Sequence record: PP925839.1
Reading direction: 5' to 3' (one strand)
Source: Escherichia phage PinkRuby
Length of the DNA stretch: 64,000 nt
Shown here piece after piece: positions 25,659-26,297 of this stretch. Made by a program: the position numbers and the translations under genes. Position 1 is the first letter of the stretch, and each line of letters opens with the position of its first letter. Below the pieces are notes generated by a model. The model did not search any database and was not told the DNA's origin. It saw nothing but the letters and a program-made list of their open reading frames with translations.

Positions 25659-25846
25659 TATTCTTCTACATGTTGTTTACGACCTTTCTTATCAATAAAG
25701 GTATATTCAACGAATGCCCCAATGTAGTCTTTATCTACATCATGTGGACTATTAATTGGACATTTAGTACGGCAAATGCGTTCCCATTGACGAATAATTA
25801 CTGCTTTGTTTTTAGGATCAAACGGATGTGGGTAATGCACTTTCAT
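25634..25846 (-). CDS. Hypothetical Cys-containing small protein
   Basis: 70-aa ORF. Confidence 0.5.
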   Translation of the reverse strand: MKVHYPHPFDPKNKAVIIRQWERICRTKCPINSPHDVDKDYIGAFVEYTFIDKKGRKQHVEEYCLKVTWL

Positions 25847-26297
25847 AATCCACCACTATTAAATCAATATCAGGAGTAAACATGTCGATTAATTTAGAAA
25901 CCTTATCCCAATCGCCGCCAGCAATACCACAACCTATGCGTGGAATGTAAATTACCGGTTTAAACAAAAGGGTTTCTGCCTGTAGATTTAATTCTATCAT
26001 GCAGTTTACTAAAGCACCATAATCAAGATTAGGACCTGGTTCGTATTGCGTATACAGGTTATAGCATATACCAAATCCCGTAGGACTATGTTTAAAAACA
26101 ATAGACATATCGCCTAATTTATCGCGAGAACCGTACTCAGTAGTAGTTTTATCTATTTCTAAAATTTTGGGATAGGCTCTGGCTAATTGACCCGCTACAC
26201 CTGAACCCATAGTATGAAAACAATTGCACCCGTGCGCAATAATATTACCTTGAAGAAATAGGGCGACAATATCGCCCTTGATATATTTTACAATCAT
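25818..26297 (-). CDS. Macro-domain (ADP-ribose binding/processing) protein
   Basis: 159 aa; GDIVALFLQGNIIAHGCNCFHTMGSGVAGQLARAYP and later IPRIGCGIAGGDW match the two glycine-rich loops of macro domains; ATGA coupling with upstream ORF. Confidence 0.65.
   Translation of the reverse strand: MIVKYIKGDIVALFLQGNIIAHGCNCFHTMGSGVAGQLARAYPKILEIDKTTTEYGSRDKLGDMSIVFKHSPTGFGICYNLYTQYEPGPNLDYGALVNCMIELNLQAETLLFKPVIYIPRIGCGIAGGDWDKVSKLIDMFTPDIDLIVVDYESALPTSV

Follow-up and report, generated by a model that had tools for sequence, protein, structure and literature searches.

Introduction

The gene considered here, tk.4 of Escherichia phage PinkRuby, was analysed within a 64,000-nucleotide (nt) stretch of sequence record PP925839.1 (the window, to which all positions refer), where it occupies 25818..26297 on the minus strand. 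The closest described system is its orthologue in phage T4. According to the HIDEN-SEQ preprint (bioRxiv 10.1101/2025.11.20.689424), tk.4 was the single significant match when a T4 transposon library was passed on a DarTG2 host, and a clean tk.4 knockout rendered T4 sensitive to DarTG2; the authors renamed the gene adfM (anti-DarT factor Macrodomain) and proposed that its product removes ADP-ribose from DNA. The T4 orthologue now has a name and a phenotype, being needed for resistance to the DNA-ADP-ribosylating DarTG2 system. Johannesman et al. (PMC11825919) had found that T4 and T2 without adfN, as well as T4 without both adfA and adfN, are still DarTG2-resistant; the tk.4/adfM phenotype fills the gap left by that study.

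Macrodomain proteins from other sources have been characterised biochemically. The PhiKZ protein gp104, independently also named AdfM, removes thymidine-ADP-ribose in vitro (Morgan et al., PMC13309987). SCO6735 of Streptomyces coelicolor strips DNA of ADP-ribose linked to thymidine and saves cells from DarT; its Q85A variant is inactive and N27S nearly inactive, and the mechanism put forward for it is mediated by water, the Gln serving to position the distal ribose (PMC9411070). The Bacteroides protein BT1257 belongs to the same Gln-type, ALC1-like macrodomains and likewise hydrolyses thymidine-ADP-ribose in DNA. The subclass of SCO6735 and Bt_1257 is defined by a mobile loop about 5 residues longer than that of DarG and TARG1, carrying Lys89 and Lys93/94 (PMC9411070). 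By analogy with these proteins, the PinkRuby gene product probably acts in counter-defence against DarTG2, removing DarT2-made ADP-ribose from thymidines in single-stranded DNA by SCO6735-type chemistry.

PinkRuby tk.4 is the orthologue of T4 tk.4

The tk.4 coding sequence starts with ATG and specifies a single macrodomain of 159 amino acids (aa) with the sequence parts MIVKYIKGDIVALFLQGNIIAHGCNCFHTMGSGVAGQLARAYPKILE...VIYIPRIGCGIAGGDWDKV..., as taken from the list of open reading frames (ORFs). Its translation carries IKGDIV, HGCNCFHTMGSGVAGQLARAYP and IPRIGCGIAGGDW. A preliminary description, made from the DNA letters, had proposed a macrodomain gene with these motifs between tk and regB without giving the strand; the ORF lies exactly there, on the minus strand, flanked by tk (24485..25066) and regB (27181..27642, minus strand, starting at 27642). 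Profile search recovers Pfam Macro (PF01661) above its gathering threshold (E=1.3e-7; 32.0 bits, the cut-off being 22 bits; positions 2-117 of the 118 in the profile), PHROG 335, which is named 'phosphatase', matches with E=1.1e-71, and a large protein collection contains 794 homologues at E<=1e-3, indicating that the ORF is not a chance reading frame.

The product is 58% identical to T4 Tk.4 (NP_049723) over 155 aa (E=1e-70, no gaps). Its gene occupies the slot between tk.3 and vs, as in T4, with neighbouring proteins that are 94-100% identical to those of T4, the same ATGA junction to vs and a product of the same length class (159 versus 155 aa) that shares H22, N25, D49, N80 and Q84. PinkRuby, a Tequatrovirus, has in this gene its orthologue of T4 tk.4 (adfM). 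That it is this long-annotated gene, and that its upstream neighbour is vs, had been overlooked in the preliminary description. Its macrodomain nature is already known: the GenBank label of T4 tk.4 reads 'phosphatase; Tk.4; contains A1pp phosphatase motif', and the gene has been annotated in hundreds of phage genomes. A real counter-defence enzyme was recognisable from reading the sequence alone.

The junctions of the gene were read from the sequence. The upstream ATGA overlap noted in the preliminary description is real: at 26294..26297 (minus strand) the TGA stop of vs overlaps the ATG of tk.4, the plus-strand tcat at 26294-26297 reading AGA TGA / ATG on the coding strand, and the junction sequence is the same in T4. 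A GAGGA motif at 26309..26313 (minus strand), 11 nt 5' of the tk.4 ATG and within the 3' end of vs, resembles a Shine-Dalgarno sequence and may function as one. At the other end, tk.4 overlaps tk.3 by 29 nt (25818-25846, minus strand), whereas the T4 overlap there is a 4-nt ATGA; the window allele enters the tk.3 start in another frame, gaining a C-terminus 4 aa longer than that of T4 Tk.4, with the low-confidence residues PTSV.

Within tk.4 codons 7-13 (KGDIVAL), at 26260-26278, lies a perfect hairpin with an 8-bp stem, AGGGCGATATTGTCGCCCT, which T4 has in identical form. The scan for terminators picks it up on either strand, and the 'terminator-like' matches inside tk.4 were set aside, all of them being this one coding-region hairpin. 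It may be a mere consequence of the conserved 5' end of the gene.

The product is a stand-alone macrodomain

An alignment of 64 homologues with 38-79% identity to the query was used for an AlphaFold2 model and for all invariance counts given below. The model consists of alternating strands and helices with a mean predicted local distance difference test score (pLDDT) of 94.2 and a predicted template modelling score (pTM) of 0.89, and the last three residues alone are disordered. When compared with the Protein Data Bank (PDB) by Foldseek, the model reached a probability of 1.00 for all among the 50 matches listed, nearly all of which are solved macrodomains or designs based on one. Matches include TARG1, Poa1p, BT1257, the DarG proteins of T. 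aquaticus and M. tuberculosis and SCO6735, with E values from 5e-10 to 6.5e-8 and template modelling (TM) scores of 0.7-0.8. The best structural match is human TARG1 (4J5R/4J5S; E=5e-10, TM 0.72-0.83), the two DarG structures (5M31, 5M3I) reach TM ~0.75, SCO6735 is represented by 5E3B, and Poa1p has E=3e-9. The structural check thus bears out the macrodomain prediction, and the tk.4 product is a stand-alone macrodomain of the TARG1/DarG/ALC1-like class.

Sequence profiles give a similar set of relatives. With the family profile, the PDB sequences rank as BT1257 (1.7e-19), TARG1 (7.7e-17), SCO6735 (2e-15), Poa1p (7.8e-15) and M. tuberculosis DarG (5.8e-12). Defence-oriented libraries match DarG only (NCBIfam 1.6e-6, PADLOC 5.4e-7), and the NCBIfam model NF048014 (DarG) scores 27.6 bits against an equivalog cut-off of 250 bits, the match covering the macrodomain part only (profile positions 2-138 of 338).

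The two glycine-rich stretches, which the preliminary description had likened to the ADP-ribose-binding loops of macrodomains, align column for column with these loops of TARG1, DarG and SCO6735 in the profile, MAFFT and hhalign alignments, and they align ungapped with the TARG1 stretches AHCISEDCRMGAGIA and PRIGCGLDRLQW, following the patterns AH.....MGAGIA in loop 1 and PRIGCG....W in loop 2. They are thereby placed like the loops that bind the diphosphate and the distal ribose of ADP-ribose, and the misalignment that the preliminary description had named as grounds for refutation does not occur. Loop 1 (H22-G36, HGCNCFHTMGSGVAG; 26190..26234, minus strand) lies between the strand at residues 19-24 and the helix at 33-41 and contains the invariant residues H22, N25, G33 and A35. 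Loop 2, the phosphate-binding loop (I118-W130, IPRIGCGIAGGDW; 25908..25946, minus strand), lies between the strand at 115-118 and the helix at 130-140. In the model the loops themselves comprise residues 25-32 and 119-129, each placed between a strand and a helix. The form of loop 2 found in the window (PRIGCGIAGGDW) is the commonest in the family and is near the PRIGCGLAGG.W of SCO6735 and BT1257.

The N-terminal Asp of macrodomains contacts adenine. In the window protein, D9 of the K-G-D stretch (codons 7-9; 26271..26279, minus strand) aligns with this conserved Asp of TARG1 (VKGD), BT1257 and SCO6735, and position 9 is D in 51 and N in 13 of the 64 family members.

The prominence of Poa1p among the matches, together with the 'phosphatase' labels on T4 tk.4 (A1pp motif) and PHROG 335, brings in the reading that the protein is a small-molecule ADP-ribose phosphatase or esterase, that is, a Poa1p-like ADP-ribose-1''-phosphate phosphatase or an O-acetyl-ADP-ribose deacetylase tidying NAD-derived metabolites during infection. 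We regard this as quite improbable. Yeast Poa1p (6LFQ-6LFU) is among the best matches in sequence (E=1.6e-9) and in fold; its N-terminal half aligns, including the H-x-C-N-C motif, and H22 aligns with the His of the Poa1p LIHSCNC motif, which is mutated in 6LFS (H23A). The second Poa1p residue mutated in the PDB, Ser30 (6LFT), corresponds by counting along the alignment to T29 (T in 41 of 64), at a position to be read with the caveat that only the N-terminal half aligns confidently. Against this stand the different, small-molecule substrate of Poa1p and its lower rank in the profile search, where BT1257, TARG1 and SCO6735 precede it, and the label is a domain-name carry-over rather than a tested activity. 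Moreover, T4 repairs tRNA by Pnk and Rnl and not by the Tpt1 pathway, and we know of no source of ADP-ribose-1''-phosphate in T4-infected E. coli. In the HIDEN-SEQ preprint, DarTG2 sensitivity is the only phenotype reported for the T4 orthologue.

Gln replaces the catalytic lysine of DarG

The active site was compared in a MAFFT alignment of the window protein, T4 Tk.4 and PhiKZ gp104 with the DarG, TARG1, BT1257 and SCO6735 sequences taken from the PDB-search alignments. H22, N25, D49, N80 and Q84 are invariant in 64/64 family members. N25 aligns with N22 of DarG and N27 of SCO6735, and the stretch N80-L-Y-T-Q84 (26046..26060, minus strand) lies at the end of the strand at residues 74-82. Its Q84 falls in the catalytic-Lys column of TARG1 (K84), DarG (K80) and PhiKZ AdfM (K78), corresponding to Gln85 in SCO6735 and to Gln in BT1257; T4 Tk.4 likewise has Gln at position 84. 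The Lys84/Asp125 dyad of TARG1 is thereby replaced with Gln84/Ala126 in the window protein. The profile alignment, MAFFT and hhalign agree that N80/Q84 correspond to N81/Q85, which is consistent with the strand ends in the model. The pairwise BLAST register to BT1257 and SCO6735, shifted near residue 84, was not used. The hhalign probability is 99.2% with SCO6735/BT1257 and 98.5% with DarG.

With SCO6735 and BT1257 (Bacteroides; 2FG1/2AFC) the window protein has in common the Gln at the Lys position, the supporting Asn and His, the PRIGCG[LI]AGG.W loop and the stand-alone single-domain architecture. It differs from them in being phage-encoded, in its low identity (~25-27%), in an isoelectric point (pI) of 5.0 versus 8.4-9.5 and in its short loop, which is without 5-6 residues and Lys89/Lys94: where the SCO6735 subclass has its mobile loop, both the window protein and T4 Tk.4 have the lysine-free stretch QYEPGPN, and BT1257 has six extra residues in the MAFFT alignment. 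A strongly electropositive surface for DNA binding is a further mark of that subclass. The whole-protein pI values are 5.03 for the window protein, 5.0-5.9 for phage Tk.4 proteins, 9.51 for SCO6735 and 8.36 for BT1257. A low pI of 5.03 appears to be no obstacle to activity, because the acidic PhiKZ gp104 (pI 5.05) cleaves oligonucleotides carrying thymidine-ADP-ribose (T-ADPr) in vitro. The family is best described, as far as its residues indicate, as a macrodomain of the TARG1/DarG/ALC1 class that combines catalytic residues of the SCO6735 type with a short-loop scaffold.

The DarG macrodomain of DarTG2 (5M31, 5M3E, 5M3I) shares the fold (TM ~0.75), the loop-1 Asn (N22, equivalent to N25) and the N-x-x-T-[K/Q] strand end, and its target, DarT2-made thymidine-ADP-ribose, would be the same as that addressed in the work on the T4 orthologue and on PhiKZ AdfM. 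The window protein differs from it in having Gln for Lys80, in being without a C-terminal domain for DarT binding and in having no darT gene next to its own. TARG1 (OARD1) is ~20% identical and differs in the dyad. Because the lysine of DarG and TARG1 is the invariant Q84 here, the chemistry is probably SCO6735-type and not DarG-type, and since the Gln/Asn pair takes the place of the DarG lysine, the design of mutants and mechanistic claims should follow SCO6735, not DarG. The passages of the HIDEN-SEQ preprint that were examined compare Tk.4 with DarG only, and no mention of the Gln substitution was found in them; that the T4-type AdfM has the SCO6735-type Gln/Asn pair and is without the DarG lysine is a point that we did not find in the literature examined.

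PhiKZ gp104, from a chimallivirus, is likewise a phage orphan macrodomain directed against DarTG2, acidic, of ~160 aa and with the loop-1 Asn kept. It belongs to another, DarG2-like macrodomain lineage, keeps the DarG-type Lys78, is imported into the phage nucleus, and its activity has been shown biochemically. It was rejected as a close homologue, given two short local BLASTP matches only (E=0.001 and 0.74) and the retained DarG lysine. The shared name AdfM may therefore confuse, as T4 Tk.4 (2025 preprint) and PhiKZ gp104 (Cell Rep 2026) come from unrelated lineages, one with Gln and the other with Lys. ICP1 AdfB was also rejected as a relative, being described as a probable direct-interaction inhibitor of DarT and not presented as a macrodomain (PMC11481870).

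Proposed function and competing explanations

The preliminary description had suggested that the protein reverses ADP-ribosylation, with DarT-type systems as one target, and this part of the proposal agrees with the need of T4 for tk.4/adfM in resistance to DarTG2, as reported in the preprint (bioRxiv 10.1101/2025.11.20.689424). In the mechanism that we favour, the tk-regB transcription unit, on the minus strand, would supply the gene product. The host DarT2 toxin would ADP-ribosylate thymidines in single-stranded phage DNA; Tk.4 would bind the ADP-ribose between its two glycine-rich loops and cleave the ribose-thymine bond, restoring replicable DNA. Q84 would be held in place by the invariant N25, with water as the likely proton donor. 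We thus infer, by analogy, a hydrolase activity with thymidine-ADP-ribose as substrate, and expect that the 58%-identical PinkRuby allele behaves like that of T4.

Several observations weigh against this assignment. Identity to T4 Tk.4 is only 47% over residues 49-155, and the T4 evidence is genetic only and comes from one preprint and one DarTG2 system (bioRxiv 10.1101/2025.11.20.689424). The protein has neither the catalytic lysine of DarG, TARG1 and PhiKZ AdfM nor the extended, lysine-carrying mobile loop employed for DNA by SCO6735 (PMC9411070), and it is acidic, whereas SCO6735 and DarG are basic. As H22 is common to Poa1p (H23), the sequence by itself would also permit phosphatase chemistry. 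Furthermore, catalytically dead SCO6735 also inhibits DarT by binding (PMC9411070), so protection could be partly non-enzymatic.

The last point can be extended to protection that is mainly non-catalytic, in which the protein binds and blocks DarT2 or shields ADP-ribosylated sites, in the manner of the antitoxin mimics AdfA/AdfB and of dead SCO6735. Such inhibition has precedents: SCO6735 Q85A, DarG K80A and TARG1 K84A all inhibit DarT in vitro, SCO6735 most strongly (PMC9411070), and ICP1 AdfB appears to neutralise DarT by direct interaction (PMC11481870); the canonical catalytic lysine is, moreover, missing in the window protein. However, the SCO6735-type catalytic residues are all invariant in the 64 homologues, down to 38% identity with the window protein, and invariance across otherwise divergent homologues argues for selection on the active site. 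The window protein is also a single domain of 159 aa without a DarG-like C-terminal DarT-binding domain, and stand-alone family members occur in bacteria with no darT nearby. One such homologue, from Pelagimonas phthalicica (GCA_004364805.1, 5001-5459 of the stretch viewed), is 40% identical and is encoded by a stand-alone chromosomal gene; its neighbours at this one locus are unrelated genes of housekeeping type and include neither darT nor defence genes, indicating that orphan members of the Gln-type family also occur in bacteria. We consider a mainly non-catalytic role decidedly improbable.

T4-type phages encode three ADP-ribosyltransferases, and the substrate of the enzyme could in principle be ADP-ribosylated protein or RNA instead of DNA, the marks being made by the phage enzymes Alt, ModA and ModB or by toxins of the host, for instance CmdT, an mRNA ADP-ribosyltransferase, or modifiers of uracil and of RNA phosphate ends. 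Alt, ModA and ModB modify arginine, and we know of no cleavage of this linkage by macrodomains of the present class. As the principal function, reversal of protein or RNA ADP-ribosylation is unlikely in our judgement, and a side activity of this kind is possible by analogy with the relatives: TARG1 and SCO6735 also accept proteins with Glu-linked ADP-ribose (PMC9411070), and RNA is freed of uracil-linked ADP-ribose by both of them and by DarG (PMC13036486). The deep allelic split described below could likewise reflect different substrates. On the other side, CmdTAC is reported to give robust defence against T-even phages (PMC11618068), from which these phages appear not to neutralise it. In the results of PMC11833690, SCO6735 is inactive on 5'-phosphate-linked RNA/DNA and on 2'-OH RNA ADP-ribosylation, although the discussion of the same paper calls it active on RNA phosphate ends. 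Finally, the T4 screen reported tk.4 in the DarTG2 condition only (bioRxiv 10.1101/2025.11.20.689424).

The preliminary description had also named Thoeris-type systems as possible targets. A protein that degrades or sequesters ADP-ribose-derived immune signals, e.g. the Thoeris signals gcADPR or His-ADPR, would be plausible in general terms, as macrodomains bind ADP-ribose derivatives and phages counter Thoeris with sponges. For the Tk.4 family, however, profile, structure and literature searches gave no link to Thoeris, and all of the closest relatives with a characterised activity work on macromolecule-bound ADP-ribose (PMC13309987, PMC9411070, PMC13036486), making this the case we would least expect. 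We found no evidence for an action on Thoeris signals, and none that the protein undoes ADP-ribosylations made by the phage itself.

Two tk.4 alleles in Tequatrovirus

Sliding nucleotide identity to T4 delineates an island of divergence at 25830..26150, covering codons ~50-156, in which identity is 47-70%, as opposed to 95-100% in the flanks. The proteins reflect this pattern, identity to T4 Tk.4 being 83% over residues 1-48 and falling to the 47% mentioned above beyond them. When GenBank was searched by megablast at >=90% identity, 279 phage records had the window type and 225 the T4 type, and alignment of one type with the other is limited to the 5' 146 nt, at ~86%. Two alleles thus occur with similar frequency in Tequatrovirus backbones that are otherwise 95-100% identical, and most of their differences lie in the phosphate-binding loop and the C-terminal two thirds. 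A laboratory phage with the window-type allele was sought among T2, T4 and T6, and all were assigned to the T4 type: the T2 protein is, like that of T4, 58% identical to the window protein, and T6 tk.4 was placed by its length alone (155 aa).

The window type is nearer to other genera, with 76% identity to phage EcWhh-1 and 78% nucleotide identity to IME08. In loop 2 it reads CGIAGGD, the family consensus, versus AGIGKGN in T4, whose IGAGIGKGNW is a family outlier, and the window allele is therefore more canonical than that of T4. That T2, T4 and T6 carry the T4 type, and that the window type is no rarer in the collection searched and stands nearer to the family consensus, was not found in the literature examined. 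Given how much of the gene was already known, what remains, namely the Gln-type mechanism in phage AdfM and the common window-type allele, is a modest addition.

From its sequence, the island looks like the result of cassette exchange, as is typical of the hyperplastic regions in T4-type phages. The two alleles could differ in function, acting against different DarT2 variants, on other ADP-ribosylated bases or RNA, or in escape from a host factor that blocks the macrodomain. It is a tentative and rather unlikely proposal that they form a balanced polymorphism kept by an arms race; the separate proposal that the Tk.4 family is a third mechanistic variant of thymidine-ADP-ribose hydrolase, which could combine Gln catalysis, a short loop and an acidic surface, is held with the same reserve.

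Genomic neighbourhood

The 2.4 kb around tk.4 are 99.8% identical to Escherichia phage Kelasse (Tequatrovirus kha5h) and match 728 phage records, nearly all of them T4-like phages of enterobacteria; the window belongs to Tequatrovirus. The gene order is that of the T4 reference record, with rI, rI.1, tk, variable small ORFs, tk.3, tk.4, vs, vs.1 and regB. The downstream neighbour tk.3 (25634..25846, minus strand) encodes a DUF7202 protein of 70 aa (Pfam DUF7202, E=4e-38) with 94% identity to T4 Tk.3. The upstream neighbour vs, annotated as 'valyl-tRNA synthetase modifier' (26294..26635, minus strand), encodes 113 aa with 97% identity to T4 Vs (PHROG 1256, E=5e-40), and is followed further upstream by vs.1 (26628-27173, minus strand), whose product has an SLT lytic-transglycosylase domain (Pfam, E=1.4e-5).

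The preliminary description had taken the upstream gene to encode a secreted Cys-rich protein, and the Vs translation, read by eye, indeed has a signal-peptide-like N-terminus followed by 4 Cys. Signal-peptide-like starts are present in both vs (MTKILVLCIGLISFSALA) and vs.1 (MRKALLAGLLAISMMAHS). An exported Vs fits poorly with the annotation as a modifier of the cytoplasmic valyl-tRNA synthetase. In the HIDEN-SEQ preprint (bioRxiv 10.1101/2025.11.20.689424), vs is reported as the most depleted gene in minimal medium.

The tk.1-tk.2 segment (25076-25658, minus strand) differs from T4 and contains three small ORFs, encoding 61 aa with 52% identity to T4 Tk.2, 58 aa without a counterpart in the T4 locus, and 75 aa matching Pfam Phage_zn_bind (PF23895, E=3e-29). 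It forms a second variable patch adjoining the tk.4 divergence island.

A promoter and terminator scan of 24400-28300 gave 13 promoter-like sites versus 14.6 expected and was uninformative. The best sigma-70-like match (27670-27698, minus strand) lies just 5' of regB and consists of TTTACT, a 17-nt spacer and TATAAT with an upstream TG, matching 10/12 positions; this candidate promoter could drive a regB-vs.1-vs-tk.4 unit.

Public labels in this region are inconsistent and sometimes wrong. In the Kelasse record MW749001, tk.3 (1835-2047) is called 'putative ABC transporter ATP-binding protein' and vs.1 (2829-3374) 'putative endoribonuclease', many copies of tk.4 are labelled 'phosphatase' or 'hypothetical protein', and the tk.4 homologue in Acinetobacter phage DLP1 is labelled 'leucine aminopeptidase'.

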